This document shows, piece by piece, positions 6,280 through 20,135 of a DNA stretch of 24,500 nt. The stretch comes from an archaeon. Lineage in GTDB: Archaea > SpSt-1190 > DYHY01. The translations under genes and the position numbers were made by a program. The stretch lies in the NCBI GenBank assembly GCA_043803745.1, contig JAZDJS010000028.1:1-24500 (forward strand), in the 5' to 3' direction. How positions within the stretch are numbered: position 1 is the first letter of the stretch; every line of letters starts with the position of its first letter. The notes beneath the pieces are model-generated. The model saw only the letters and a program-made list of their open reading frames with translations. It had not been told where the DNA came from and searched no databases.

Positions 6280-8148
6280 ATGGCAGCCCAGGCGTTCCCA
6301 TTTGCGAGAATCCGCGAGGGCCAGAGGGAAATGGCTGCCGAGGTCGCCGCCTGCATTGCCGGAGGGAAAAACCTCGTTGCCCACGCCCCTACAGGAATCG
6401 GGAAAACCGCCGCAGCCCTTGTCCCCGCAGCCGAATGGGCGGATTCCTCCGGCGGAACAGTCTTCTTCCTGACCCCGAAGCATTCCCAGCACCGGATTGC
6501 GATTGAAACGCTGAAGCTGTTGAAAGCCCAGGGGCTGAAGATTTCGGCAGCCGATTTCATCGGGAAGAAATGGCTCTGCCAGGTTTCGGGCGCCCAGGAG
6601 CTTGCCGGGCGGGACTTTCTCGACTATTGCGCATCTGTCAGACGGGATGAAATCTGCCCCTTCTACAACAGGACCTTCCGGAAAAGCCAGGTAACCGGAG
6701 AAGCGAAAAAGGCTGCGGAGCTCCTTCTCGAGAAGCAGCCCCTTCACGTTGAGGAGGCGGTCGAGCTTACGAAGATTTTCTGCCCGTATGAGGTGATGGC
6801 TCTTGCGGCGAAATCCGCGAATTTCATTGTCTGCGACTATTACCACCTCTTCAATCCCCGCTCAGCCGCAAGCTTCCTTTTCAAGACCGGAAAGACCTTC
6901 GAGGATGCCGTGATAATAGTTGACGAGGCGCACAACCTCCCCGAACGGATACGGGAGACGCTCTCAAGCAATCTTTCGGAAATCGGGCTTGTCCGGGCTT
7001 CGCGCGAGCTTGCCGAGTTCGGGCAGTACGACCTTTCGGAAATCGTCGAGCAGATTGGCTTTGGCTTCCGGAAGCTCGGAAAGGCCCGTGTCGGCGACGA
7101 GCGGGAGGCGATGCTTTCAAAGGAGGATTTCACGGGGATAGTTTCATCCTGTTTCGGCGACTCCGACACATTTTCCAAGAAGATTAAGGAGGCTTCCGAC
7201 GAAATCCGGAGGAAGAAGCGGAAAAGCGCTGCCGGGGCGCTTTCCTCCTTTGTCGAGGACTGGCTCGGTCCTGACGAGGGCTATGTCCGGACAATCAAAG
7301 TCAGGAAAACCAAATCCGGCAAGCCCTTCTCAGTAATAACCTACAGGTGCCTCGACCCCGCAATCGGCTCGAAGGAGATAGTAGGCTCGGCGCGCTCGAC
7401 AATCCTGATGAGCGGGACACTTGTCCCGACCAAGATGTATGCCGAGCTCCTCGGGCTTGACGAGGGGAAAACAGTTGTCAAGAGCTTCCAATCCTCATTC
7501 CCCCCGGAGAACAGGCTGAACGTGATTGCAACGGGAGTCACCACCAAATTCTCCTCCCGCGGCGAGAACCAGTACAGGAAGCTTGCCGGGACAATCGAGC
7601 GGGTTGTTGCGGAAACTCCCGGAAGCGTTGCCGTTTTCTTTCCCTCCTACATACTGAAAAGCGAGATTTCCGCGCTGATCCAATTCCCCCAGCCGGTCTA
7701 CAGCGAGAAGCAGGAAATGGACAAGAAGGAGAAGACCGACTTCCTCAGGCAGTTCTTCTCGGAAAAACGTGCAGTCCTCCTCGCTGTCGCGGGCGGCTCC
7801 CTATCCGAAGGGGTCGATTTCCCGAAGAACGTCCTAAAGGGAGTCGTTGTCGTCGGCCTCCCCCTCCAGCAGCCGACCCTTGAGACGAAAGCGCTCATCG
7901 ACTATTACCAGAAGAAGTTCGGGCGAGGCTGGGATTACGGCTACCTTTATCCCGGCATCTCGCGCGCAATCCAGGCGGCCGGGCGGATGATCAGGTCAGA
8001 AAGCGACCGGGGGGTCGCGGTCTTCCTTGACGAGCGCTATACTTGGGCAAACTACAGAAAATGCTTCCCCCCGGAGCTCAAGACAGTCACCAGCGCGTTC
8101 CCTGAGAAGCTCGTGGGGGAGTTCTGGAATAATAAGGGAAAGGAATAA
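6280..8148 (+). CDS. xpd: XPD/Rad3/DinG-family Fe-S DNA helicase
   Basis: Q motif (REGQ), APTGIGKT, four Fe-S Cys (WLC, DYC, ICPFY, FCPYE), DEAH, SGTL, SEGVDF, QAAGRMIRSESD. Confidence 0.93.
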   Translation: MAAQAFPFARIREGQREMAAEVAACIAGGKNLVAHAPTGIGKTAAALVPAAEWADSSGGTVFFLTPKHSQHRIAIETLKLLKAQGLKISAADFIGKKWLCQVSGAQELAGRDFLDYCASVRRDEICPFYNRTFRKSQVTGEAKKAAELLLEKQPLHVEEAVELTKIFCPYEVMALAAKSANFIVCDYYHLFNPRSAASFLFKTGKTFEDAVIIVDEAHNLPERIRETLSSNLSEIGLVRASRELAEFGQYDLSEIVEQIGFGFRKLGKARVGDEREAMLSKEDFTGIVSSCFGDSDTFSKKIKEASDEIRRKKRKSAAGALSSFVEDWLGPDEGYVRTIKVRKTKSGKPFSVITYRCLDPAIGSKEIVGSARSTILMSGTLVPTKMYAELLGLDEGKTVVKSFQSSFPPENRLNVIATGVTTKFSSRGENQYRKLAGTIERVVAETPGSVAVFFPSYILKSEISALIQFPQPVYSEKQEMDKKEKTDFLRQFFSEKRAVLLAVAGGSLSEGVDFPKNVLKGVVVVGLPLQQPTLETKALIDYYQKKFGRGWDYGYLYPGISRAIQAAGRMIRSESDRGVAVFLDERYTWANYRKCFPPELKTVTSAFPEKLVGEFWNNKGKE

Positions 8149-8176
8149 AAACAGCTTTTCCGAATCAGTTCCGCAT

Positions 8177-8713
8177 ATGGAACGAACACTGGTAATGGTA
8201 AAGCCCGACGGAGTCAAGAAGAAGCTTGTCGGGAGGGTAATCAGCCGCATTGAGGATTCAGGCCTTGCAATTGACAACATCAAGATGTTCACCCCAACGA
8301 AGGAGCTTGTCGGGAAGCATTATGCCGGCGGCGAGGACTGGAAAAGGGGCGTTGGCGAGAAAACCGCGAAAACTTATGCACAATACGGGATTGACATGAA
8401 GAAAGCGCTTGGAACCGACAACCTGCTGGAAATAGGGACCCTTGTCAGGGGTTGGCTAATCGAGTACCTTTCTTCCGGGCCAGTTGTCGCGATAGTGGTC
8501 TCGGGAAACCACGCTGTCGATAATGTCAGGAAGCTTGCCGGGGCAACGGTGCCGATTTTCGCGAACCCGGGGACAATCCGCGGGGACTGGTCAATAGATT
8601 CCCCCGACCTTGCTAACGGGGAGAAGCGCGCTGTCGAGAACATTGTGCACGCATCCGGGACCGTCGAGGAAGCCGAAGCTGAGATAAAATTGTGGTTTCC
8701 GGAAGCCAAGTAG
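8177..8713 (+). CDS. ndk: Nucleoside-diphosphate kinase (long-insert type)
   Basis: MERTLVMVKPDGV, SGPVVA, PGTIRGD, NIVHAS (catalytic His); start ATG 8177. Confidence 0.95.
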   Translation: MERTLVMVKPDGVKKKLVGRVISRIEDSGLAIDNIKMFTPTKELVGKHYAGGEDWKRGVGEKTAKTYAQYGIDMKKALGTDNLLEIGTLVRGWLIEYLSSGPVVAIVVSGNHAVDNVRKLAGATVPIFANPGTIRGDWSIDSPDLANGEKRAVENIVHASGTVEEAEAEIKLWFPEAK

Positions 8714-8782
8714 AGCCAAGTAGATAGAAAATACCCTGTTCTGGCTTCCGACTTCGTCCGCTCAGCCCGAAGCCAAGTAGAG
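8700..8782. repeat. Duplications of the ndk 3' end with an internal inverted copy
   Basis: GAAGCCAAGTAGAG at 8702-8715 and 8769-8782; AGCCAAGTAGA also at 8714-8724; TGGCTTCCG (8742-8750) is the reverse complement of 8700-8708. Confidence 0.85.
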
Positions 8783-8878
8783 GGAATATCGGAAAGTTTC
8801 TCTCCTTGCTTATATCTGCAAAAGTTCTTCTCGGACAAAGGGGAAAAAATTTAAACCATGGACTCTTATGGTTTCGAC

Positions 8879-9109
8879 ATGGCAAGAAGGAACGTCACCT
8901 CGATACAGGTCAGCCCACAGCTTCTCAGCCTCCTGAAAAGGAGGAAGTTCGCCGAGAAGGAAAGCTATGAGGAGGTAATCCTTTCTCTGATAGAGGATGT
9001 CACCGAAATTTCCGAGGAAGCAAAGGAGGAAATCGCCTCGGCCAGACGTGAGGCAAGAGCCGGAAAAGTCGTTCCCTTTTCAAAGGTCCGGAAGGGACTG
9101 GGTATTTGA
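8879..9109 (+). CDS. Putative antitoxin (RHH-like N-terminus), RelB-type partner
   Basis: TSIQVS...ESYEEVILSLIE N-terminus and GKVVPFSKVRKGLG tail; TGATG overlap with relE; TTTAAA at 8850 favours ATG 8879. Confidence 0.8.
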   Translation: MARRNVTSIQVSPQLLSLLKRRKFAEKESYEEVILSLIEDVTEISEEAKEEIASARREARAGKVVPFSKVRKGLGI

Positions 9110-9360
9110 TGTACGAGGTTTTTTTCACTGAACGGGCCCGGGACCAGCTTGGCAAGCTTCCAAGAGAAGACAGGGAGAGGATTTCCCGGGCAATTGAACG
9201 GGCTCGGTTCAGGCCCTTCGACTATTTCATCCGGCTTGTCGGGGACAGCGCACACAAGCTTAGGGTCGGCAACTACCGGATTATCGCCGACATTGACGGA
9301 AAGAAACTGGTAATCCTGGTTCTTAGGGTTGCCCACAGGAAAAACGTTTATGACCTCTGA
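9109..9360 (+). CDS. relE: RelE/ParE-family toxin
   Basis: YEVFFTERARDQL..., KLRVGNYRII, C-terminal HRKNVY. Confidence 0.9.
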   Translation: MYEVFFTERARDQLGKLPREDRERISRAIERARFRPFDYFIRLVGDSAHKLRVGNYRIIADIDGKKLVILVLRVAHRKNVYDL

Positions 9361-9361
9361 A

Positions 9362-9943
9362 TCAGTTCTGCTTCTCAACAGTCCCGCCGGTTGAAACGCG
9401 CCCGCCCTTCCACTGCCCGTCATATGCCCTGTGCAAATCCCCGACAGCCTGCTTGAAGACAACCCCGAGCATCCGGGCTCCGAGTTCGAACCTGAACGGC
9501 GCGCCTCCAAGGTTCGCGATTGCAAAGGTCAATTCACCCTTGTATCCCGGGTCGGTTTTCGTTCCCATGAGGTAGACCCCGCACCGGTGCAGCGTGCTCC
9601 TCGGGTAAATATGTATCATCAGATGGACGGGCGGCTTTCCCTCCTCGACAACTATCTTCTCGGCAGGGGCGTGGACTTGTTCAACCGTCTTCACAAGGAA
9701 ATAATCTCCCGGAGCCATTACAACAACCTTGTTCCCGTCAGTCTTGATATCCGCTATCTTGACGATTTCCGGGCTCCGCCTTTCAGCTACCCCGAGGAAC
9801 CCCTCCCCCGAAAGCTTGTAGACCTCTCCCGCCCGGAGGTCGAACCCGACCCCTTCCGGATTCTTCAACTCTCTCTCAGAAAGGCCCTCAATCAGCTTGT
9901 GCTTTTCGTTAAGTTCAAGGATTCTCTTCGCTGTCAGAATCAT
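9362..9943 (-). CDS. dCTP deaminase/dUTPase superfamily protein, probably a dUTPase
   Basis: GFDLR, PRSTLHRCG, TDPGYKGELT, YDGQW. No Glu at the deaminase position after DPGY. Confidence 0.85.
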   Translation of the reverse strand: MILTAKRILELNEKHKLIEGLSERELKNPEGVGFDLRAGEVYKLSGEGFLGVAERRSPEIVKIADIKTDGNKVVVMAPGDYFLVKTVEQVHAPAEKIVVEEGKPPVHLMIHIYPRSTLHRCGVYLMGTKTDPGYKGELTFAIANLGGAPFRFELGARMLGVVFKQAVGDLHRAYDGQWKGGRVSTGGTVEKQN

Positions 9944-10446
9944 TTTATCACAACTTCGGAGATTCCAGGAATCGCCTTCAGCTTCGTCAGGAGGTCTCCT
10001 GCAAGCTTCTGGTCCGTCACGACAACAATCTTCGGGTCGGACACGATTCCCGTGTCATCGGCGATAATCTGCCTTATCGAAACCCCCGAATCGGAAATTT
10101 CCTTCGTGATCCTCGCAAGGACGCCCGGGTTTTTCGCCGAATCGGTCCCCTTGAGCTCGATTACCCCCAGGTTGTTCTCGATTGCAACGTCGGAGAGGTC
10201 GAGAGTCGCCTTGAATTTCGAGAAAATCCTCTTCAGCTCCGGATTCCCGAGTATCGTCTTCTCGGCGGCGGTTACCGCGCGCCTGTCAACTCCGATTGAG
10301 CGGGAGAATTTCGAGTCGGAAATCTCGACCCCGTTGCAGAATATCCCGCCTTTTTCCCCTACGGAAAACCCGCGCTTCAGCATCTCAAGCGCAACGGTTT
10401 TCTGAGCAGGATACCTGTCCAAAAGAAGTTTTATCTTCTCCCACAT
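9940..10446 (-). CDS. ACT-domain protein (COG2150-like predicted regulator)
   Basis: YPAQKTVA..ML..GFSV, GVDRR, PGVLARIT...GVSIRQII; ATGA overlap with the next gene. Confidence 0.85.
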   Translation of the reverse strand: MWEKIKLLLDRYPAQKTVALEMLKRGFSVGEKGGIFCNGVEISDSKFSRSIGVDRRAVTAAEKTILGNPELKRIFSKFKATLDLSDVAIENNLGVIELKGTDSAKNPGVLARITKEISDSGVSIRQIIADDTGIVSDPKIVVVTDQKLAGDLLTKLKAIPGISEVVIK

Positions 10447-10660
10447 ATCTGGGAGGGCAGGCCAGGTGGTTTTTAACCATTTTGCCGAAGCCTGCTTTGC
10501 TCAAAAAGCAGTATTTGCCCGCAAAGTCAATGTGTTGTCTCACGTTGCCGGCGTCCCGTCTTCAAGGTCCGGAGTTAAGATACCTGGAAAAATATTCCGC
10601 CCCGAGCCCTTGCCGCCTTTCCTACACTAAGCTTTTAAATTCAAATTGATTACCACTAAC

Positions 10661-11398
10661 ATGGGGATAACTGGTATATACTTTCACACAGCAGAGAAAA
10701 TGCCCGAGATTCCTGATGGCACCGTTCAGCTGTGTTTTGCGTCCAATCCATATTCAGGCAGGCCGGATGGCAAGCTTGACAAGGAAGAATACTTGGCTTT
10801 TTTAGGAACCGTCTACTCCGAATGTTTCCGGACTCTCAAGCCGGGCGGAATATTCGTGACCCTGAACACGGACCTGCGGGACCACGCAAAATACAACCGC
10901 GGCGACCGGAGATTTGACGGAAGACTCTGGCGCAAGCACAACGATATTGCGCTAGTTGCCGAAGATTTGGGATTAAGACATTTCTGGACCGTGATATGGC
11001 AGAAAACGGCAGGAATTCCCGAGGTGAAGTATTTCGACGGAAGGATAATCGGTTATTCCTACGTCCAATTTTTCTGCAAAGATCGCCTGCCTCCGGGAGG
11101 GAATCCTCTTGAGGAACATCCCGATGTCTGGCCTTTGGAAGACGCGATGATAAGAGTTGATTCGAACGGATATGAATTTACCGAAGCTATTCATCCGGAA
11201 ATACCAAGAAGATGCATTAGGCTGTTTACGAAGGAAGGCGATGTTGTTTTGGCGCCGTTCACAGGGTCAGGAACAGTGCAGGCAGCGGCCCATGAGCTGA
11301 ATAGGAATTGGGTTGGCTATGAAACCAACAAAAATCTCGAAAGGCTCATTTCCGAAAGCATATTCGGCCCAATACGACCGGACATCTACAAAGCCTAG
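10661..11398 (+). CDS. N4-C/N6-A DNA methyltransferase-like protein (beta order) with atypical motifs
   Basis: Motif IV reads SNPY, then RTLKPGG, DVW, HPE, and motif I reads VLAPFTGSGT followed by RNWVGYE; TTTTAAAT upstream. Confidence 0.85.
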   Translation: MGITGIYFHTAEKMPEIPDGTVQLCFASNPYSGRPDGKLDKEEYLAFLGTVYSECFRTLKPGGIFVTLNTDLRDHAKYNRGDRRFDGRLWRKHNDIALVAEDLGLRHFWTVIWQKTAGIPEVKYFDGRIIGYSYVQFFCKDRLPPGGNPLEEHPDVWPLEDAMIRVDSNGYEFTEAIHPEIPRRCIRLFTKEGDVVLAPFTGSGTVQAAAHELNRNWVGYETNKNLERLISESIFGPIRPDIYKA

Positions 11399-12558
11399 GC
11401 TCCGCGTCCCGAAACTATCTTCACGATATCCCCGCTTTTCAGTCGGGTTTCCGCGGAAATTCTCATTTTCGTCCGGGCGTTAACCGCCGAGATGAAGTTT
11501 TTCGCAAGGTCCGTGTGTATTGCCCCCGCAAGTTCCGGCGGGGTTGAGCCGTCCGGGAGCAGGACCGCGTCCGGAAGGATGTTTCCCGCCTTGTCGGAAT
11601 ATTTCCCCTCGTTCTCTACCGGATAGACTACTATTTTCCCAAGGAGCTTGAAAGCAGCAGTTTCGATTGTCTCCTCGACCCCGGTTGAGGCGTATTTCTC
11701 GATTTTCTTCCCGATTACACCCAGGGCCCTTTCCTGCTCGGGTGCGAGTTTCCCGATTATTGAGAATTTCCCGGCTCCCGGCGAATAGTCTATCAGCCCC
11801 CTTGCCGCAGCCTGGCGGAGCGCAAGTTCCCCCTCGGAAAAAACCGGGACAATCGGGATTTCGGGAAATTCCTTCTTCAGCTTCTCGAAATTCCCCTCGG
11901 AATCGGGAAGATCTATCTTGTTAGCCGCGATTATTATCGGCTTCGATTCTTTCCGGAGTATTTTCGCGAACTCAAGGAGACTGTCCTCCTTCGGCGAGAA
12001 GTTCTGCAGAACCCGCGCAACCCGGTCCCTCCCGATATTCAGGCCGGAAAGTATGTCGGAAAAAACGTCAATTGCCTTTTCCATTTTCAACCTTCTTTCA
12101 ACAACCTTCCAATGCTTTTGGAGGATTCCCTCGAACCACCAGTCTATCTCCTCTGAAAGGAAGCGAACGTCTCCGGCCGGGTCGTGCCCGCGGGTAAGGT
12201 TCCCTTCCGCATCGGTTGTTCCGGAGACGTCAACAACGTGAATCAAACAGTCCGCCCTTGCAAGGTCGGTGAGGAACTGGTTGCCAAGCCCGCGCCCCTC
12301 ATGCGCGCCCGGAACCAGTCCCGCAACGTCAAGGAGCTCGACCGGGACATAGCGCGTTCCAGCTTTGCAGGAGCCGTGCTTCGGGTTGCAAGTCACCTTA
12401 AGTTCCGCGCACGGGCATTTCGCCCGGACATATGCAATCCCGCGGTTCGGCTTGATTGTCGTGAACGGCCTCGGGGAAATCGCAACGTCAACCAGTGTCG
12501 CCGCCTTGAAGAAGGTCGATTTCCCGCTTGAGGGCTTGCCAACAATCCCTATGAGCAA
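11395..12558 (-). CDS. ychF: YchF/Obg-family translation-associated GTPase/ATPase with TGS domain
   Basis: GKPSSGKST, PFTTIKPN, DVAGLVPGAHEGRGLGNQFL, NKID, IHTDL; TTG start after an SD-like AGAGGT. Confidence 0.92.
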   Translation of the reverse strand: MLIGIVGKPSSGKSTFFKAATLVDVAISPRPFTTIKPNRGIAYVRAKCPCAELKVTCNPKHGSCKAGTRYVPVELLDVAGLVPGAHEGRGLGNQFLTDLARADCLIHVVDVSGTTDAEGNLTRGHDPAGDVRFLSEEIDWWFEGILQKHWKVVERRLKMEKAIDVFSDILSGLNIGRDRVARVLQNFSPKEDSLLEFAKILRKESKPIIIAANKIDLPDSEGNFEKLKKEFPEIPIVPVFSEGELALRQAAARGLIDYSPGAGKFSIIGKLAPEQERALGVIGKKIEKYASTGVEETIETAAFKLLGKIVVYPVENEGKYSDKAGNILPDAVLLPDGSTPPELAGAIHTDLAKNFISAVNARTKMRISAETRLKSGDIVKIVSGRGA

Positions 12559-13079
12559 AGCCGGCCAACCTCTTCAAGGAGCTTTTTCAGGTTCTCCAGC
12601 TGCCTGCATTCCCCGAATTCCTTCCTGAATGAATCGATGACTTCCTCATGGGTCGCAATCCCGCCGGGAAAAATCCTCTTGTCAGCATAGGAAAGGAGTC
12701 TTTCTTCCATTGTCAAGGGCATGTAGATTTTCCCTGCCGGGAGTCCGATTTTTGCAGCCTCCTCATCGTCAATCCCGCTCCCGAGGTGCCGCTCAATCAT
12801 TTTGCATATTTCCTCGTCAACGCCGTAGGAGCGGACAATAGCGGCGCCGACAACGCCGTGGTGGGGTCCTTCCGAGCGCGCCCTTGCAATGTCATGTAGG
12901 AGCGCCGCGGCAAGAAGGGCGGGCAGGTTTATCTTCAGCTTCGGGCCTATTTTCTCCGCAAGGGTTTTCGCATAGTTGCGCACACTGATGCAGTGCTCGA
13001 TCACGTTCTCTGGCGTTCCTTCCCGCTTGTGTATTGACATGCATTGTTCTTCAGTTGGAATCATTTTCTTTTTCTTCAC
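12549..13079 (-). CDS. HD-domain (HDIG-like) phosphohydrolase
   Basis: VIEHC, ALLHDIAR, HGVVGA, ERHLGSG, EERLLSYADK; alternative start ATG 13064. Confidence 0.88.
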   Translation of the reverse strand: MKKKKMIPTEEQCMSIHKREGTPENVIEHCISVRNYAKTLAEKIGPKLKINLPALLAAALLHDIARARSEGPHHGVVGAAIVRSYGVDEEICKMIERHLGSGIDDEEAAKIGLPAGKIYMPLTMEERLLSYADKRIFPGGIATHEEVIDSFRKEFGECRQLENLKKLLEEVGRLCS

Positions 13080-13134
13080 TCCATCTCATTTATTCTAGGC
13101 TCAGACTTCGCCCAGCTGCGCCGGACTTCTTCAT

Positions 13135-14088
13135 TCAGCGCGTCCGGCTCGGCTTTCCTTCGCTCATGTATTCGCAGAACCGGCAAGTCTCCCTTGAGGA
13201 GAGTTCCCCGCAGTTTCCGCATATCCTTGGCTCCGCCCTAAAAAAGCCTTTGCGCAAAACGGGCAGTATTCTGTCCGCTGTCGAGACAATCGAGTATTTT
13301 GTCCCCGGATGGGCATCCTCAATCGAGTTCATCGCGTTCCTAACAGTTTCCCGCAGGGCTGTCGAGGCATAGGGGCAGACGGCTGAATCGAATTCCCAGC
13401 CGTTGAGCATCGCAAAGACGGCAACCTCCCTTTCCGGAATAATCCTCAGGGGTTTCACCCTCTGGACGAACCCCTTGAATCTCGAAACCCCGACCTTCGC
13501 CCCGAGCCTGACCATCTTCTGGACGTCGCCCCTTACGAAATCCATTATGACGGATTCAGCCTCATCGTCAAGGTTGTGGCCGGTCGCAACCTTCGTGCAG
13601 CCTTCCCGCTGGGCAGCCTTGTTAAGGAGATAGCGTCTGATGACTCCGCAGTATGAGCAAGGAGTCAGCCCCTTCCCCTCGGAATCCCTCGGAATCCCTC
13701 GGACAACCGAATCAAGGGGTTTCCCGAATTCCTTCCTTGCGGAAATGACTATGTGTTTTATCCCCAGCTTCTTGCACGTCTTTTTGGCAAGCCCAAGGGA
13801 ATGCGCCCTATATCCGAAAATCCCCTCGTCAACTGTTATCGCAACAATGGAGATGTCCTTCCTTTTCGAAAAGAGCTCGTGCAGCACATGCAAAAGGACT
13901 GTGCTGTCCTTCCCAGCGGAATAGCCAATTGCAATTCTGTCTCCGGAGGAAATCAAATCCTCCTGCGCAGTATGCCTCTTTATCCTCTTCCATGTTTTCT
14001 TCAGAAAGTGCTTCGAGCAAAGGGGCTCTCCGCAGTATTTCAGCTCGATTACCGGCCCGTTCTTGCACCCCTTGGCGAAGCAGTCCAT
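13135..14088 (-). CDS. tRNA 2-thiolation enzyme, NcsA/TtuA/Ctu1 family
   Basis: N- and C-terminal Cys/His Zn-finger motifs, PP-loop SAGKDS, CSYC, TGHNLDDEAES, CPY. Confidence 0.92.
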   Translation of the reverse strand: MDCFAKGCKNGPVIELKYCGEPLCSKHFLKKTWKRIKRHTAQEDLISSGDRIAIGYSAGKDSTVLLHVLHELFSKRKDISIVAITVDEGIFGYRAHSLGLAKKTCKKLGIKHIVISARKEFGKPLDSVVRGIPRDSEGKGLTPCSYCGVIRRYLLNKAAQREGCTKVATGHNLDDEAESVIMDFVRGDVQKMVRLGAKVGVSRFKGFVQRVKPLRIIPEREVAVFAMLNGWEFDSAVCPYASTALRETVRNAMNSIEDAHPGTKYSIVSTADRILPVLRKGFFRAEPRICGNCGELSSRETCRFCEYMSEGKPSRTR

Positions 14089-14091
14089 CTT

Positions 14092-14307
14092 CTATCCTCC
14101 GGAAATTATCGAAACAATCTCGACCTTGTCTCCCGGAGAGATTTTTTCGGATTCGGCAACAAGCCTTCCGTTCCGCCGGACAACGACGGTTTCCCTGTTT
14201 ATCCCGAGCTTTTTCAGCAGATTCTCGAATGTCTCCCCGGGGCTTATCTCCTCGCGGGAGGATTTCCCCGGAATCCTCTTGACAAGTATCTTGAATCTTT
14301 TGGTCAT
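14092..14307 (-). CDS. Ubiquitin-like sulfur carrier (SAMP2/ThiS/MoaD family)
   Basis: 71 aa, beta-grasp pattern (VVVRRNG, GDKVEIV), C-terminal SGG; 3 nt upstream of the ncsA-like gene. Confidence 0.92.
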   Translation of the reverse strand: MTKRFKILVKRIPGKSSREEISPGETFENLLKKLGINRETVVVRRNGRLVAESEKISPGDKVEIVSIISGG

Positions 14308-14323
14308 TTGGTTTCCGCCCCCG

Positions 14324-14386
14324 CAGCCTGTTTTATGCTTAATCCCTGGCAGTTCTTCTCAGGCGTGCCGAACATAAAACAGGCTG
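14324..14386. repeat. Perfect 14-bp inverted repeat with 35-nt spacer
   Basis: CAGCCTGTTTTATG (14324-14337) / CATAAAACAGGCTG (14373-14386). Confidence 0.9.
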
Positions 14387-14449
14387 GCGAAACTTTCGGC
14401 GCGATTCTCAACCGGAAGAATTAAAACCCGCCTTCCATTTCATCGGAGA

Positions 14450-15664
14450 ATGTTCGGTCCGAACCTCCAGAGAATCCGCAGCGACTTTCCCGTCCTTTCC
14501 CGATGCACCTACTTCGACAACGCCTGCATGACTCTCAAGCCCCGCCAGGTAATCGAGAAAATGAACGAATATTATTCCGAATACACCGCCTGCTCGGGAA
14601 GGAGTGCCCATCGGCTTGCCGACCGGACCGGGACGGAAATGGAGCTTGCCCGGGCTGCAATTGCGAGGCAGATTGGGGCTAAAAGGGACGAGGTGGTTTT
14701 CCAGCGGAACACGACCGAGGGGATAAATCTCGTAGCAGGCTCGCTTGAATTTTCCAAAGGGGACGAGATTCTCACAACCGACATCGAGCACAACTCGAAC
14801 CTCCTTCCCTGGCAGAAGGCGGCGGCAATCTCGGGGGCGACCCACAGGGTGATTCCCACCAATTCCGAATTCCAGCCAGATTTCGACTTTCTTGCTTCGG
14901 AGCTGAAAAAGGGGCGGGTGAAGCTTGTCGCGCTTCCCCTCGTCTCAAACATATCCGGCACAAGGATGCCTGCTGAGAAGATTTCCCGCCTTGCCCATTC
15001 AGCCGGCGCACTCGTCCTTGTTGACGGCGCACAGGGAGTTCCATCCTCAAGGACATCCGTTTCATCCCTTGGCTGCGACTTTCTTTGCTTCTCCGGACAT
15101 AAGATGTGCGGTCCGACGGGAACCGGAATTCTCTGGGGGCGGAAAAAACTCCTCGAGGAGCTGCCGCCTTTCCTTGTCGGAGGGGAGACTGTCGCGAACT
15201 CCACGTATTCCTCCGCCGATTATGAAAAGCCGCCGGCGAAATTCGAGGCAGGCCTCCAGGATTATGCGGGAATAATCGGGCTCGGGGCCGCTTCCAACTA
15301 TTTGCAGAAACTCGGGTTCGGCTTCATCGAGGGCCGGAAGAGAAAGCTCGTCAAGGTTCTTGTGGAAGGACTCCGGAAAATTCCGCAGGTGAGGCTGATC
15401 TCTCCTGAACGCCCGGCGGAATATTCCTCCGCCCTTGCGAACTTTTCAGTCGAGGGCCTAGACCATCACCAGGTCGCAATAACCCTTGACGAGGTCGGGA
15501 AAATCGCGCTGAGGAGCGGGCGCCACTGTGTCCATTCCTGGTACAATTCCAGGAAAATTTCCGGCTCAGTGAGGCCGAGCCTCTATTTCTACAACACCGA
15601 GGGCGAGGTTGAATTTTTCCTGAAAACCCTTTCAAGGATAGTCAGCGACCTTTCCCCAGCCTAA
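14450..15664 (+). CDS. sufS: Cysteine desulfurase, SufS/CsdA type
   Basis: YFDNA, NTTEGIN, EHNSN, DGAQ, SGHKMCGPTG (PLP Lys), FEAG, RSGRHC (catalytic Cys). Confidence 0.92.
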   Translation: MFGPNLQRIRSDFPVLSRCTYFDNACMTLKPRQVIEKMNEYYSEYTACSGRSAHRLADRTGTEMELARAAIARQIGAKRDEVVFQRNTTEGINLVAGSLEFSKGDEILTTDIEHNSNLLPWQKAAAISGATHRVIPTNSEFQPDFDFLASELKKGRVKLVALPLVSNISGTRMPAEKISRLAHSAGALVLVDGAQGVPSSRTSVSSLGCDFLCFSGHKMCGPTGTGILWGRKKLLEELPPFLVGGETVANSTYSSADYEKPPAKFEAGLQDYAGIIGLGAASNYLQKLGFGFIEGRKRKLVKVLVEGLRKIPQVRLISPERPAEYSSALANFSVEGLDHHQVAITLDEVGKIALRSGRHCVHSWYNSRKISGSVRPSLYFYNTEGEVEFFLKTLSRIVSDLSPA

Positions 15665-16128
15665 GCGGAGATGTCTGCTTCAACTGCTCCGGAAATTCGG
15701 ACAATTTCCCTCGGGGAAATCCTCAGCAGGCTCTGGGAATCTCCTCCTCCGCCGAGGACAAGCTCGCGCCCAAGAACAAGCGGGTCAATCAGTATTTTCA
15801 GGCCCTTAAAACCCTCGAAAACCGGCGGAACGCCTCCCGCCGGATAGCCCGTTGTTTCAAGGACCTCCTCGGGGCTCGCAATCCGCACCTTTCCCGTGCC
15901 GCAAAGGAGCCTGAACTTTCCAAGGTCAAGCCTTTTGTCTCCGGGGATTATTGCTATAATGGGGACGTTTTCAGCAAGGACAACGACGGTCTTTATCAGG
16001 TCCCCTTCTCCAACGCCCGCCTCCTTCGCGGCTTCGGCAACGGTGTGAACGCTTCCCGAGAACGAGATTATTTCCCCGGCGGCTCCGCGTTCCTTCAGAA
16101 ATGCTTCCAGCCGTTCCCTCGATGACAT
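15661..16128 (-). CDS. YbaK/EbsC-family aminoacyl-tRNA deacylase
   Basis: HTVAEAA, LIKTVV, TGYPAGGVPP, GGG; true start ATG 16128. Confidence 0.9.
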   Translation of the reverse strand: MSSRERLEAFLKERGAAGEIISFSGSVHTVAEAAKEAGVGEGDLIKTVVVLAENVPIIAIIPGDKRLDLGKFRLLCGTGKVRIASPEEVLETTGYPAGGVPPVFEGFKGLKILIDPLVLGRELVLGGGGDSQSLLRISPREIVRISGAVEADISA

Positions 16129-16159
16129 TGCGCTATCCCCCGGCAGGAACGTGAGAAAC

Positions 16160-16167
16160 TTTATAAA
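16160..16167. promoter_or_regulatory. Palindromic TATA box between divergent genes
   Basis: TTTATAAA lies ~31 nt from the minus start (16128) and ~25 nt from the plus start (16193). Confidence 0.55.
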
Positions 16168-16192
16168 ACAGCGGCAAATTGGCTTTTCCACA

Positions 16193-16618
16193 ATGGCAGT
16201 TGCAAGAATGTTGCTAACGAAAATCGAAGGGAAGCTTAACGAAGATGCAAAGGTAGAGGGGGGCCAGCTTTCAATCTCAACGAACAGCAGGGTCGAGCAC
16301 ATTGCAATTGAGGACATTGGCAAGCAGAAGGTTGTAGTTGCCAAATGGGGACTTGATGTCGAATACTCCCCGAACGTCGGCAAGATAGTCGTGGAGGGCA
16401 AGGTATATGTCACTGGCGACCCGGAAAAGATAACCGAAAAAGCGGGCACGGGGATAACTTTGGTTGCCGAAGAGGCGCGCCACGTCCACCAGGCAATACT
16501 CCGGCTTCCGCTGATTGTCGCAGTCAACGTTGCAAGGGAGCTCTCGCTTCCGCTTCCGATGAATTTCCCGACGGTTGAGATTTCCGGAGCTCAAAAGGGC
16601 AAGTCAAAAAGCGGATAG
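16193..16618 (+). CDS. Conserved archaeal protein, probable SecB-like fold
   Basis: Beta-rich N-half (VEYSPNVGKIVVEG), then a helix and ARELSLPLPMNFP, the pattern of archaeal SecB-like proteins; start ATG 16193. Confidence 0.65.
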   Translation: MAVARMLLTKIEGKLNEDAKVEGGQLSISTNSRVEHIAIEDIGKQKVVVAKWGLDVEYSPNVGKIVVEGKVYVTGDPEKITEKAGTGITLVAEEARHVHQAILRLPLIVAVNVARELSLPLPMNFPTVEISGAQKGKSKSG

Positions 16619-16876
16619 GGAAAAAACGGAGTAGACTTTCCCGGCGATTTCCCGCGTCTTTTTCTCGTCAAGGAGCTTCTTGAAGAGTATTTTTCCGCTT
16701 GAATAGAGTGAGAATTCCACGCCCCCGGGCGTCCGGATTACGGCAACGTAAGGGGTCACCGCAAGGATGGTTCCGATGGAATCGAGCTTGTTTCTCTCCT
16801 TCACGAGGTTTATCGCAGCCTCCTTGTCCGGCGTGACCTGATATGCAGTTTCAGAATCGCAGAGCTTGAGCTTCAT
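16604..16876 (-). CDS. Small protein resembling the C-terminal domain of long ThiF/MoeB proteins
   Basis: LCDSETAYQVTP...TPYV...FSLYSSGKILF; ATGA overlap with the thiI-like gene. Confidence 0.65.
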   Translation of the reverse strand: MKLKLCDSETAYQVTPDKEAAINLVKERNKLDSIGTILAVTPYVAVIRTPGGVEFSLYSSGKILFKKLLDEKKTREIAGKVYSVFSLSAF

Positions 16877-17808
16877 TGCGCGCGGGCCACCTCGAAGAAA
16901 TTTTCACGTTCAACCACCTCTGCTTGATTTTCCGAAAAATACTTCTCGCCCAGCCTTCCAATTTCCCCTCTCGACAGGAAACTGAGCGGGCAAAGCTCAA
17001 GGATTCCGAACTCCCTTTCGGGCGCGCCCGAGGATTTCCCGGTTACAATTGCCATGCATCCCCTGGCAAGCGCAATTTCCTCCGGGCGCGCCCCGGCGGC
17101 CAGGACAGAAACCCGCAGTTTCTTTTTCGGGAAAAAGTCCAGCGCGCGCCCGAGGATTTCCGCGGACTTTCTGCCCTTGTCCGCGGGAGCGAAAAACTCG
17201 AGCGAGCATCCCCGCTTGGCGGCTTCCAATCCCGCCAGCACCGATTCCCCGCTTCCATCGAGGAGGACGAGGGCGCGCCCCTCGATTCCGTACGGGATTC
17301 CGCCCGCCCCCGGGATTCTTTCGAAATATATGTAGGAAGCATCCTCCCTTAGGTCGACGAAAATCTCGCTTTCAGGATTCGTCAGGTCGACTTTAGCCTC
17401 CGGGAATTTCTCAAGGATTTCTCCGCCCAGAGCCGCGGCGAACTCCTGCGAAGTGAACGGAAGCTTCCCCGCCCGCTTCGCCCTTACCGCAAAAGTCCTT
17501 CCGACCGTTTTCACTTCTTCAAGGCATTTTCCGAGCAAAGCCTCCAACGGGGAAAAGTCAAGCTCAATTGCCGGGGAAACGGAGGCAACTCCGAAAACCC
17601 GGGAAATGACCGCGCAGGCTTCTCTCCCCCGCCCTTCAGGGACCCTTGCGACAATCCGCCCGCTCCGGGTTTTGAAAAGCGTTCCCCCAATTCCTTTGTT
17701 CGAGAGGAAGTTCATTATGTTCGAGAAAAGGGTCTGCTCGAAATCTATCCTCGGTCCCCCGCTCTTCAGGGCGATTTCCCCGGTGCGCACAATGACGATT
17801 TCCTCCAT
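16873..17808 (-). CDS. thiI: ThiI-like protein: NFLD and THUMP domains plus a degenerate, shortened PP-loop domain
   Basis: VRTGEIALKS, VFGVASVSPA, TFAVRAKRAG, VDLTNPE, GAGGIPYGIEGRALVLL, KRG; the SGGxDS position reads DGSGES. Confidence 0.8.
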   Translation of the reverse strand: MEEIVIVRTGEIALKSGGPRIDFEQTLFSNIMNFLSNKGIGGTLFKTRSGRIVARVPEGRGREACAVISRVFGVASVSPAIELDFSPLEALLGKCLEEVKTVGRTFAVRAKRAGKLPFTSQEFAAALGGEILEKFPEAKVDLTNPESEIFVDLREDASYIYFERIPGAGGIPYGIEGRALVLLDGSGESVLAGLEAAKRGCSLEFFAPADKGRKSAEILGRALDFFPKKKLRVSVLAAGARPEEIALARGCMAIVTGKSSGAPEREFGILELCPLSFLSRGEIGRLGEKYFSENQAEVVERENFFEVARAQ

Positions 17809-17922
17809 TCCGGATTGCCCCCGAACCCGCCTTTTAAGAAAGCGGGTGGGGAACTATCCAGGACCGCCCGGGACCGCAGGAGAAAACACTATTAAAAAGG
17901 ACGGGTTGGGAGGAGACGCCGA

Positions 17923-18007
17923 GCTGAGGTAGCGAAGCGGTTAACGCGCCAGATTGCTAATCTGGTTTCCCGTAAGGGATGCATGGGTTCGAATCCCATC
18001 CTCAGCG
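17923..18007 (+). tRNA. tRNA-Ser(GCT)
   Basis: Acceptor GCTGAGG/CCTCAGC plus discriminator G; anticodon stem CCAGA/TCTGG with loop TTGCTAA; long variable arm TCCC-GTAA-GGGA; T arm ATGGG-TTCGAAT-CCCAT; no encoded CCA; TATTAAAA upstream. Confidence 0.97.
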
Positions 18008-18323
18008 CTCGCATATTCTATTGAAAATCACGATAGGCTCGCGCTCCGGACTTCATCCATACAATCGAACGATAGGCTCAGCCTCAGCGCTCAAGCCCTT
18101 CTTTTTCACGAAAAAGAAGCCCTTGATGGGAAGAAAAAGGTTGCGCGCCAATGACGCGCTTTTGGGCGCGCGGGTTCCCGAGACCGGGGAGGTTGAGGTC
18201 CGTGCCAGCGCACGGGGAATCCCATCCTCACTAGCGCTCGCATATTCTATTGCACGTCACAAAAGGCTCGCGCTCCGGACTTCACCCATACAATCGAACG
18301 ATAGGCTCAGCCTCATTAGCGCT
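17991..18323 (+). repeat. Two ~100-bp direct repeats beginning in the tRNA-Ser 3' end
   Basis: 17991-18091 versus 18217-18323: about 6 substitutions and two 3-nt insertions by eye. Confidence 0.92.
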
Positions 18324-18459
18324 GAAACCTGTCATGGGAAAAGAAAGAAAAAAGTCCGCAGTCTTCCAGAAAAAGCCGCAACCGTCCGGGAACACCTTCC
18401 ATTTGTCTTCAGTCAGTTACACTGCCAAATTATTAAACCAGACTAGACAAGCTTGCCAA

Positions 18460-19308
18460 ATGGGTGGGAAAACCGAACTTCTTGCAGTTGGAAATTGCCA
18501 GTATTTCGAGGTTCCCGCCAACTTCCCTGACGGACTCGAAGCGGCGCTTCCAAGGGCTCTTGCCCGTCTGCAGCAGGAGCGGGATGCTGTTGAGAAGGAG
18601 GCGGCCATTGAAATTGCCCTGACCCTTTCGACAAACCTTGGCCCGCCAGGCAGGGTTCGCCCAAAGCAAATCTCCGAGTTCTCCTGGTATCTTGAAAGGG
18701 AACTGCGCAGTCCTGACGTTTTCGACGGGTTGGATGATATCCAAGCATACCTGAAGGGGCGGCTGGTTGTGTTCTCCTACGCAAGCTCGTCCATTGTTTC
18801 CGCCCAGAACCATTTGCGGATGGTCGGGTCAGGAGTAGTTTCCCCCGGCGAAAAATACGAGACGAGTGAAAGATTCCTTGAAGAGGTTTCCGGAATCCCG
18901 GCAAGGGAGCTCGGAGCGGAACTTCTCGCCCCGCTAGTGCCGCTTCTTCCGGAGGGAACCCTTCCCGGGAGGTTTGGCGGTGATGAAGAAGACGAAGAAG
19001 AAGAGATACCTAACGGAAGCTATCTCGCGGACTACCTTTTCTCGGCAGCGCTCATCTCTCCGAACGCTTTTCTGGAAGCTGCCGAGGAGATTTCAGCAGT
19101 TGCAGGGAAGCTCCCCAAGAAAGAGCTCCTGGGATATGCAAGGTTCATGCGTGGAATCGAGACCTTCTCAAAGCTCCTCGAGGCGTCCAATCTAAACAAC
19201 CACCCGAAGAGGTTCCCTGCAAGAATTCTGGAATCTGCAAAGAGGATTTTCCAGGACAGCCTTGACTATTGGCCCCAGGCAAGCGAAACATACGATTTGC
19301 TGAAGTGA
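18460..19308 (+). CDS. Hypothetical protein (282 aa, acidic patch DEEDEEEE)
   Basis: TTATTAAA at 18430-18437 then ATG 18460; the track's N-terminal extension runs through the repeat and is unlikely. Confidence 0.75.
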   Translation: MGGKTELLAVGNCQYFEVPANFPDGLEAALPRALARLQQERDAVEKEAAIEIALTLSTNLGPPGRVRPKQISEFSWYLERELRSPDVFDGLDDIQAYLKGRLVVFSYASSSIVSAQNHLRMVGSGVVSPGEKYETSERFLEEVSGIPARELGAELLAPLVPLLPEGTLPGRFGGDEEDEEEEIPNGSYLADYLFSAALISPNAFLEAAEEISAVAGKLPKKELLGYARFMRGIETFSKLLEASNLNNHPKRFPARILESAKRIFQDSLDYWPQASETYDLLK

Positions 19309-19335
19309 GGCACCCCCGCCCCACGAGAATTTTCC

Positions 19336-19720
19336 TTTTTTGACAGTGTCAGTGCGGCCAACAGCCGGCCTCGATAAGAGCGGAAAAGTTCAGCATGCAA
19401 ATCTCCTTCGCGGCTCCGCTCAGGATTTCGGGCCCCTGCCCTCAACCTTACACAGTTTCTTTTTTGACCGTGTCAGTGCTGCAGCACAGATGTCCTGCCT
19501 TTGACTGGATTGTCTGCAGGCAAGTCTGAGGACCAAACGACTTTTTTCTTTGTAAAAGTTCTCCTCAGAGAATCAACGTTCCACCTGAAAAAAAGGGGTT
19601 CTGTGCCAGCCCGGCTGCTAAGAGCCGGATTTTCCCTTTTGAGAACATTCGGTCGCTCCCGCTCAACAGCCGGCCCTATTTTAGGTTCCCTGCAATAGAA
19701 GGGGGTTCGCTTGCGGACCC
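19336..19720. repeat. Mosaic of partial copies of the SRP RNA 3' end with REP-like hairpins
   Basis: 19357-19403 copies 19755-19798; TTCTGTGCCAGC at 19599-19610; CAACAGCCGGCC at 19664-19675; TTTTTTGAC(A/C)GTGTCAGTGC twice (~19336, ~19460); hairpin at 19702-19720. Confidence 0.85.
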
Positions 19721-19754
19721 CACGCATTTGATGAAACTTTCGTAAAGTTTCTGT

Positions 19755-20030
19755 GCCAGCAGCCGGCCTCGATAGCGGAAAAGTTCAGCATGCAAATCCC
19801 TTACCTCCATTCCGCAACCCCAAGGACACGCCACAAAGGACTTATGGTTGCTTCCTTCCGGATCTGGCCCGTTCAGCCTAGCGGAGCTCCGTTGGGACGA
19901 AACTTCGCCGTTGGGGGAGCTTGTAGGGGCTGAATTCCCCGAAACCTCCGCCGACCATCAGCCTGCCGTAAAGCCCGTTTGCAGTCCCTCTTGCGAGTTC
20001 AGGTCAGGGCTAGTAACCCGCCTAGCTGGC
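19755..20030 (-). ncRNA. ffs: Signal recognition particle RNA (7S/large SRP RNA)
   Basis: Helix 8 signature GCCAGATCC-GGAA-GGAAGCAACC (within 19870-19846); 5' GCCAGC pairs with 3' GCTGGC; long helix-5 pairing; Alu-like 5' end; ATTAAAA ~25 nt upstream. Confidence 0.9.
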
Positions 20031-20110
20031 GAGAAACAAGGACATCCGAGGGTTTTAATCCTTTCTTTTCGGCCGTGAACGACCTTTTATTTGGAAAGAA
20101 CGGGCGTTCC

Positions 20111-20135
20111 TAGGCAGCCCGCCCCTTAGCTGGCG
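20111..20135. repeat. Degenerate copy of the SRP RNA 5' end
   Basis: TAGGCAGCCCGCCCCTTAGCTGGCG versus TAGTAACCCGCCTAGCTGGCG (20011-20031). Confidence 0.6.

Follow-up and report, generated by a model that had tools for sequence, protein, structure and literature searches.

The casposon of A. boonei integrates with a 15-bp duplication that overlaps the 3′ end of a tRNA-Pro gene, and a segment of the T loop is required as a leader (PMC5137440, as given in the accessible portion of the article). Among other integrated elements, 44-bp repeats flank the 21.4-kb PYG1 (PMC9897764) and a recombinase-bearing element of 1.8 kb lies at a tRNA-Thr locus (PMC3293823), again according to the accessible portions of these articles. 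Table S3 of PMC9897764 lists partial tRNA genes in other taxa that may bear on the pattern reported here. We analysed a window of 24,500 nucleotides (nt; contig C28, JAZDJS010000028.1) from an archaeal genome, in which ndk, a tRNA-Ser gene and the gene for the signal recognition particle (SRP) RNA are each followed by an insert of 53–138 nt flanked by an 11–14-nt direct copy of the gene end. An earlier note, made from the letters of the window, had read these three loci as one family of hairpin insertions templated by their targets and sharing a short core.

The genome under study, called G000 below, comprises 1.23 Mb in 51 contigs and is 90% complete. For comparison we used its congener G001, G003 from the same family, and G004 as a further relative. 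All of these genomes are metagenome assemblies, from which mobile elements and repeats may be missing. In the literature on archaeal tRNA-gene fragments, on repeats of DPANN archaea and Micrarchaeota and on casposons, supplementary tables aside, we found no description of such inserts.

Duplicated gene ends at ndk and across the genome

Many of the inserts end in a bipartite core, GAYYTYG-N(2–38)-SCTCRGCC, which abuts the outer copy of the target and is common to the ndk and tRNA-Ser inserts. At ndk, the proposed succession of target end, inverted copy, core and direct copy is fully borne out, with an exact 14-nt repeat and a 9-nt inverted copy. The locus consists of the following parts.

8027–8713, + strand: ndk gene (Pfam NDK, E 6.4e-36), given as the longest open reading frame (ORF); the true start probably lies further in
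8702–8715, + strand: target copy 1, the last 14 nt of the locus, with the stop codon TAG (8711–8713) and 2 nt; exact repeat
8716–8724, + strand: partial direct copy, 9 nt, of 8706–8714, by sequence match
8742–8750, + strand: inverted copy, 9 nt, of 8700–8708; it abuts the core and pairs with 8700–8708 in the minimum-energy fold
8750–8767, + strand: core in its short form, 18 nt, by match to the motif GAYYTYG-N-SCTCRGCC
8769–8782, + strand: target copy 2, an exact 14-nt copy of 8702–8715, followed by the native downstream sequence

The whole insertion block (8716–8782) is 67 nt long, of which 33 nt are copies of the 20 nt next to it (9 and 15 nt in direct orientation, 9 nt inverted). Between the partial direct copy and the inverted copy lie 17 nt of no traced origin. 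The ndk ends of G001 and G003 differ and are followed by other genes, and the junction cannot be aligned as a filled and an empty site. Further downstream in the window, at 8858–9360, a small unnamed ORF and a ParE-type toxin gene (Pfam ParE_toxin, E 3.1e-07) sit between the convergent ndk and dCTP deaminase-like genes. The ndk locus of G001 has a different downstream sequence, in which this pair is absent.

For all tRNA genes predicted by ARAGORN, we searched for copies of the last 11 nt with at most one mismatch and no more than 500 nt away. Such a copy lies downstream in 21 of the 40 tRNAs of G000 and upstream in none of the 40; one tRNA has an inverted copy downstream. The relatives show downstream copies at 12/29 (G001), 9/26 (G003) and 11/31 (G004) tRNAs and no upstream copy in any genome, which brings the four assemblies to 53 downstream versus 0 upstream copies over 126 tRNAs. 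The pattern extends at least to another family within the same order, and the inserts of the relatives bear other motifs. A mirror image is found at 5′ ends, where the first 12 nt are copied upstream in 8/40 tRNAs of G000 and downstream in 0/40. These 5′-end copies recur 93–211 nt upstream, for example on contigs C19, C21 and C49, and the 5′ end of the SRP RNA gene behaves alike. Counted irrespective of genes, G000 contains 519 exact direct repeats of at least 11 nt with a spacing of 25–220 nt, versus 41–56 in three mononucleotide shuffles. The three loci of the window are thus part of one genome-wide phenomenon, as had been supposed, in which gene ends are duplicated and genes are left undisrupted. 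Since a direct repeat of the gene end, 11–21 nt long, flanks each insert, the gene itself stays complete and a dead copy of its end is displaced outward. The observation of gene-end duplication is largely real.

We considered whether chance similarity or faulty assembly could produce this picture. Single arms of 7 nt, such as those at the SRP RNA gene, are short, and the arm words recur at several other sites of the window. A loose version of the core pattern is uninformative as well, since it gives 724 matches with arms no better than permuted ones (scores of at least 12 in 6.4% versus 5.3%). Set against this are the complete asymmetry between downstream and upstream copies and the excess of repeats over shuffled sequence given above. 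The same architecture is moreover present in three independently assembled relatives and is thus not the assembly artefact that the earlier note had listed as a refuting outcome. Chance or artefact is refuted for the duplications and is highly improbable as a general account; single weak hairpins, e.g. the one at 19399–19428, are possibly of this kind.

Because the tRNA-end test sees only duplications that include the gene end, we also scanned without this bias all exact repeats whose gene-side copy starts between −40 and +150 of the tRNA 3′ end. This yielded 43 pairs, and in 22 of them the gene-side copy ends within −5 to +4 of the last tRNA base. The remaining copies end deeper in the tRNA (4), at +5 to +20 (1), at +21 to +60 (5) or beyond +60 (11), and many of the last group are later members of arrays. 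With 22 ends at −5 to +4 and a single one at +5 to +20, the sharp edge at the tRNA gene end is real. In most tRNA units the duplication ends 0–3 nt past the tRNA end. It starts at one of two distances from the tRNA end, namely 11–15 nt, immediately behind the T loop, or 17–21 nt, inside the T loop, and this holds in all four genomes. Over the same four genomes, insert lengths range from 15 to 245 nt.

The longer duplications, i.e. those of 17–21 nt at tRNAs and one of 47 nt at the SRP RNA gene, start in the T loop as attachment sites do. They may be read as scars left after a virus or plasmid with a tyrosine integrase entered the 3′ part of a tRNA or SRP gene, duplicated its attachment site and was later almost wholly deleted. 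Partial tRNA duplications around integrated elements are well documented (accessible text of PMC9897764 and PMC3293823). Such scars sit poorly with inserts of 30–130 nt instead of kilobases, and with the range of genes hit in one 1.2-Mb genome, which includes over 20 different tRNAs, ndk and further protein genes. Nor do they explain how one and the same core abuts differing attachment sequences or how identical tandem units arise, and the Phage_integrase domain was not found in G000. We therefore regard old integrase scars as quite improbable.

Protein genes show a similar asymmetry, as judged from crude ORFs of at least 100 amino acids (aa). The stop codon falls into the upstream copy in 15 repeat pairs versus the downstream copy in 6; some few of these 15 pairs are tRNA or core repeats seen from the antisense strand. 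On contig C36 (about 30300–32700), two tandem pilin-like genes have starts resembling class III signal peptides. Directly after each of their stop codons lie several cores, local hairpins and gene-end copies.

Core motif, inverted arm and turnover of the inserts

The core pattern was defined on G000 before it was counted, so that reversed-genome controls and counts in relatives are the fair measures of its enrichment. The strict core has 36 matches in G000 versus 9 in the reversed genome. Of these 36, nine follow a tRNA gene on its own strand at a distance of at most 200 nt, where 0.12 are expected; this zone holds none on the opposite strand, and one match precedes a tRNA. Of the 41 genomes compared, just three show an excess of the short form, namely G000 (11 matches, control 1), G001 (5, control 1) and G003 (5, control 0); it is absent from G002 (84% complete). 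The outer copy nearly always begins with CC, the two bases that end the core. A shared short core, as the earlier note had proposed, thus exists and is both enriched and oriented behind tRNA genes. The right half of the core includes a 5-nt word that we take to be recognised by some type IIS enzymes.

One possible explanation for the core was tried and rejected. It might have been a dead copy of the T arm of its own tRNA; in 15 units, however, the last 24 nt of the insert resemble their own tRNA no more than they do other tRNAs (1172 of 2000 permutations reached the observed mean), and no more than shuffled sequence does (8.47 versus 8.73 ± 0.50). The core pattern was also looked for in viral contigs, and its matches there, at least 119 and all single and scattered, are at the chance level of a pattern with 17 fixed bases and a variable gap. 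In G000, 12 pairs of cores in inverted orientation lie 0.3–4 kb apart and might mark the ends of some larger element, but several of them are simply neighbouring tRNA loci.

The inverted copy of the target was assessed in two ways. Twenty tRNA-linked inserts were scored for their best local match to the reverse complement of their own target. The mean was 11.85, a value that none of 2000 permutations of the target labels reached. The own target ranks first in 5/20 units, about 8/20 do no better than average, and for partial direct copies the own target ranks first in 4/20. For the 34 distinct strict cores, the 14 nt just 5′ of the core were scored as the arm. Against the 59 nt upstream, the mean was 11.47 (permuted 9.16 ± 0.33, reached in 0/300), with scores of at least 12 in 11/34 cores versus 4.5 when permuted. 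The match to the 18 nt after the core was lower, with a mean of 8.00 versus 7.30 ± 0.30 (3/300) and scores of at least 12 in 6/34. Against sequence further downstream, 21 of 300 permutations reached the observed mean.

An inverted copy is clear in about a quarter to a half of the units, and there are minimal units without it, such as a 32–33-nt unit repeated twice behind tRNA-Ile of G001. The inverted arm is real, though facultative, and its pairing with the outer copy is no better than that with the gene end. Hence the claim that the arms match the local target holds above chance, whereas the hairpin with a templated stem is found in a minority only, namely those 6 of 34 cores. One sub-family, on contigs C15, C38 and C47, shares its stem; most other stems are local. 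When six hairpin folds were compared with shuffled sequences, none was clearly stabler (z-scores from −1.62 to +0.55).

To follow the inserts between species, we paired nine tRNAs of G000 and G001 with the same anticodon. Eight pairings are orthologous, with tRNAs 0.91–1.00 identical, and the ninth is a cross-pairing of two different tRNA-Met(CAT) genes (0.65). In 8/9 pairings the inserts are at the level of shuffled sequence (0.36–0.55 versus 0.37–0.51), and those of the orthologous tRNA-Met pair are alike (0.73). The two target copies, in both G000 and G001, differ at 0–1 of 11 positions. With inserts unlike and target copies near-identical, the content of the sites turns over within the genus while the duplication pattern persists.

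This contrast between conserved and diverging parts may also be taken as a sign of host function, with the core and the gene-end copy forming a maintained RNA or DNA signal, e.g. a processing, termination or decoy module. Only these two parts are conserved, the outer copy stays (nearly) identical to the gene end, and the orientation of the core behind tRNAs is strict. However, about half of the tRNA genes do without such a module, and orthologous tRNAs of sister species bear different kinds of insert. The hairpins are no stabler than shuffles. An Rfam search of the window returned the tRNA and the SRP RNA only, plus one sub-threshold chance match, and the inserts match no Rfam family. The core is furthermore confined to one family of genomes, and the duplications reach further. 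A maintained host signal therefore appears to us a rather remote explanation.

The tRNA-Ser and SRP RNA loci

The window encodes two RNAs, the archaeal SRP RNA and one tRNA-Ser(GCT). The tRNA-Ser locus contains two successive units and is made up as follows.

17923–18008, + strand: tRNA-Ser(GCT) gene (ARAGORN; Rfam tRNA, 66.8 bits)
18000–18010, + strand: target copy 1, the last 9 nt of the tRNA and 2 nt
18011–18081, + strand: insert of 71 nt, two related sub-units parted by a short partial target copy
18049–18081, + strand: core in its long form, the last 33 nt of the insert
18082–18092, + strand: target copy 2, followed by the T-rich hairpin trailer
18093–18169, + strand: T-rich hairpin trailer, present after the outer tRNA-Ser copy only
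18170–18239, + strand: dead copy of the tRNA-Ser T arm and acceptor 3′ strand, split in the T loop
18178–18216, + strand: 39-nt insert with two hairpins that splits this dead T-arm copy
18226–18323, + strand: second complete unit (target copy 18226–18239, core 18278–18310, target copy 18311–18323)

Here the direct copy (18000–18010/18082–18092) and the core (18049–18081) are confirmed, and the imperfect inverted-copy stem that the earlier note had drawn is not. What was taken for a stem is a short, partly palindromic direct copy of the last bases of the target, and its fold has a z-score of 0.00 relative to shuffles. In the second unit, both target copies carry a 3-nt insertion at the identical place, which indicates that the unit formed on a variant target. 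Split T-arm copies similar to the one at 18170–18239 are seen at other tRNAs of G000. A T-rich hairpin with a short conserved tail lies directly behind many tRNA genes, or behind their outer end-copy, in G000, G001 and G003.

The SRP RNA gene lies on the minus strand and is flanked by repeats at both ends.

19753–20032, − strand: SRP RNA gene (Rfam Archaea_SRP, 50.4 bits, E 7.4e-10; below the gathering score of 96.5)
19599–19610 (outer) and 19749–19760 (inner), − strand: 12-nt repeat, the last 8 nt of the gene and 4 nt
19611–19673, + strand: hairpin unit on the strand opposite the gene, with arms 19611–19617/19667–19673 and a core-like stretch at 19648–19666
19357–19403, − strand: 47-nt copy, with a 2-nt insertion, of SRP gene positions 19755–19798, about 400 nt past the 3′ end
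19399–19428, + strand: weak hairpin with a core-like loop at 19408–19421; its left arm is the edge of the 47-nt copy
20018–20135, − strand: 5′ end of the gene, with a 14-nt repeat, 86% identical (20018–20031/20122–20135), around an insert of about 90 nt

The 12-nt gene-end repeat recurs 150 nt downstream of the gene end, and a copy of the last 20 nt of the gene is split by the 57-nt opposite-strand hairpin unit (19611–19673). Both core-like stretches are degenerate and neither fits the strict core motif. Of the two hairpins that had been proposed at this locus, the first is real; the second, at 19399–19428, is weak (z-score +0.55).

A further place in the window resembles the core.

13104–13153, + strand: two core-like copies side by side in the interval between two genes of the minus strand, with a 7-bp hairpin inside; contig C51 has a 30-nt relative

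Around this pair we saw no duplicated target. Besides ndk, the genes of the window named by Pfam are a dCTP deaminase-like, an ACT-domain, an N6/N4 DNA methylase, an Obg-like GTPase, an HD-domain, a PP-loop ATPase, a class-V aminotransferase and a THUMP-domain gene. No restriction enzyme was recognised beside the methylase gene (10646–11398). The PP-loop ATPase gene, which lies on the minus strand, contains a short tandem repeat (about 13670–13705) whose units measure about 10 nt.

Origin of the inserts and comparison with known systems

We interpret the loci, with a probability of roughly 40%, as footprints of tiny (about 30–130 nt), non-coding and non-autonomous insertions at the outer boundaries of genes, made by an enzyme acting in trans. 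An integrase or nuclease, encoded outside the G000 assembly or belonging to no recognised family, would nick the two strands about 13–15 bp apart; at tRNA genes, the gene end would be the place of one nick, and the T loop or the position just behind it that of the other. A short DNA segment would be joined in, and gap filling would yield the direct copy. Occasional fold-back priming during gap repair could give rise to the inverted copy, and unequal exchange between copies to tandem arrays. We infer every one of these steps, i.e. nicking, joining, gap filling, fold-back priming and exchange. Both edges of the duplications keep a constant position relative to the tRNA gene, one immediately behind or inside the T loop and the other at the gene end. 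This geometry resembles that of a casposase, and the mechanism may be analogous to integration by casposase/Cas1 next to a T-loop leader. Insertion is indicated by tRNA-Val(GAC), which differs from two paralogues by one clean block of 67 nt (a 52-nt insert and a 15-nt duplication), the tRNA and its downstream module otherwise aligning.

Several observations weigh against such insertions. The only comparison of a filled with an empty site, at tRNA-Val(GAC), sets paralogues of a single genome side by side instead of strains. Near-identical copies of the inserts are lacking, as blastn of nine window segments against the genome gave only matches of 15–30 nt. Only the core of about 20 nt is common to insert copies, unlike in a recently active element family. 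Terminal inverted repeats were not detected in 26 inserts (mean 7.27 versus 7.09 ± 0.34 when permuted, a value reached by 145 of 500 permutations), and only 1/26 scored at least 12. It would also be unusual for a single transposase that the duplications have no fixed length (11–21 nt, and as much as 47 nt at the SRP RNA gene) and that the inserts contain partial direct and inverted copies. The mobility that the earlier note had called possibly sequence-programmed is likewise not demonstrated, the inserts not being near-identical copies of a master element.

The search for an enzyme adds to these points. G000, at its 90% completeness, has 0 matches for Cas1, Phage_integrase, Y1_Tnp, the TnpB zinc ribbon, RVT_1 and the IS110 DEDD domain. 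Cas1 (PF01867) has 0 matches in G000, G003 and G004, though all three show the duplications. The Cas1 of G001 is part of a Cas12a-Cas4-Cas1-Cas2 CRISPR locus with an array and not of a casposon.

This CRISPR locus, on contig C3 of G001 (92000–102691), is a complete type V-A system; it has Cas12a, Cas4, Cas1 and Cas2, and an array begins at the end of the contig. A casposase in the genus was rejected, as the sole Cas1 belongs to this locus. The tyrosine integrase family (PF00589) has 0 matches in G000, serine recombinases not having been searched; not even a XerA-like gene with a Phage_integrase domain is present, which may reflect incompleteness. The Y1 family (PF01797) likewise gave 0 matches in G000. 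One GIY-YIG gene was found in this genome (a 98-aa ORF, contig C21, 4804–5016). The association with GIY-YIG nucleases that had been suspected fails, there being no core in the 1.2 kb around this gene. An HUH/Y1 transposase of the kind associated with repetitive extragenic palindromic (REP) sequences (RAYT) or a reverse transcriptase gene, which might have been flanked by the core, was not found in G000. That the window holds no mobilising enzyme was correctly noted.

The main rival dispenses with any element or enzyme. Replication or break repair would stall at heavily transcribed gene ends, copy nearby stretches in direct or inverted orientation or similar distant ones, and return a dozen bases upstream, with microhomology guiding the switches between templates. 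Templated insertions arise in polymerase-theta-type end joining and in microhomology-mediated break-induced replication. The ndk block, half of which was copied from the adjacent 20 nt, is what such switching would leave. The variable duplication length, the partial direct copies within inserts (own target first in 4 of 20 units), the lack of terminal inverted repeats and the failure to find a transposase or integrase in G000 all point the same way. The CC common to the end of the core and the start of the outer copy is as microhomology predicts. On the other hand, a conserved and oriented core at unrelated loci is not expected and would need repeated copying from a like donor. The duplication edges are also very sharp relative to the tRNA structure, and the pattern is limited to particular lineages. 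Considering both sides, we find template switching possible, though less probable than insertion. If it were the cause, nature would have recorded such repair at highly transcribed genes with unusual clarity in these inserts.

A bolder version of the insertion hypothesis has the mechanism read its target. Insertion machinery that is so far unrecognised and common to DPANN archaea would place the core at a gene boundary and copy the last bases of the target directly and sometimes also inverted. Each copy would then carry a stem matching its site that could guide or stabilise further insertion, making a self-programming element without a transposase gene that marks gene ends. This seems to us unlikely.

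Should the inserts indeed be insertions, a small element whose targeting rule is the exact gene boundary would mark roughly every second tRNA gene of a minimal genome, as well as SRP RNA and protein genes. With long duplications, locally templated arms and neither inverted repeats nor an enzyme gene, this element would fit no described class. It would offer a testable entry to how tiny symbiotic archaea reshape their gene ends, to the origin of dead tRNA fragments and of some unusual leaders, trailers and introns, and to the question of whether Cas1-like integration by leader plus ruler exists without Cas1. Gene-end copies also confuse the annotation of tRNAs and other non-coding RNAs in DPANN genomes.

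The known systems can be compared with the inserts feature by feature. In IS200/IS605-type single-strand insertion, the guides are 4–5 nt long, no target duplication is made and a Y1 transposase is needed. Bases of such an element, beside a sub-terminal hairpin, are complementary to the target just upstream, as are the arms here; the inserts differ in having target duplications, and neither Y1 nor TnpB was found in G000. Templated insertions of break repair resemble the inserts in being partly direct or inverted copies of the flanks with junctions of 1–3 shared bases, and they differ in being sporadic and devoid of a conserved core. To our knowledge, no genome has half of its tRNA genes marked by them at a constant position.

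Scars of the attL/attR type (SSV-type, pNOB8-type and PYG1) share the repeat of the tRNA 3′ part, one copy belonging to the intact gene and the other being a dead fragment, as far as the accessible text of the sources describes them. The known cases flank 9–23 kb of element DNA with an integrase and use one specific tRNA per element, whereas here half of the tRNA genes, the SRP RNA and protein genes carry tiny inserts and an integrase domain was not found. Miniature inverted-repeat transposable elements (MITEs), REP sequences, bacterial interspersed mosaic elements (BIMEs) and Rickettsia palindromic elements are, like the inserts, small, non-coding and hairpin-prone intergenic repeats that often lie behind genes, and the sub-family on C15, C38 and C47 has conserved stems. 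They differ from the inserts, which have no terminal inverted repeats, duplications that are long and variable instead of short and fixed, about 20 nt shared between copies and stems that are often local; a RAYT/Y1 gene was not found. MITEs are in addition defined as near-identical copies from a parent insertion sequence, which the inserts are not, and no transposase family was found in G000.

Casposons, as described for A. boonei and M. mazei, insert at the tRNA 3′ end beside the T loop and leave the gene intact (PMC5137440, accessible text). Their direct target duplication of about 14–15 bp overlapping the gene end has its counterpart in the inserts. They are, however, multi-kilobase elements with terminal inverted repeats and with polymerase and casposase genes, in contrast to inserts of 30–130 nt that have no such repeats. 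In the present case, Cas1 is missing from 3/4 genomes with the pattern, many different genes are targeted, and the insert has a conserved core inside it, in some units together with an inverted copy of the target. The insert pattern is not fully accounted for by any mobile element or repair process described so far. As the inserts lack a defining feature of every family tested, we file the inserts with small insertion repeats and assign them to no named family; they work most like casposon/Cas1 integration and look most like REP or MITE repeats.

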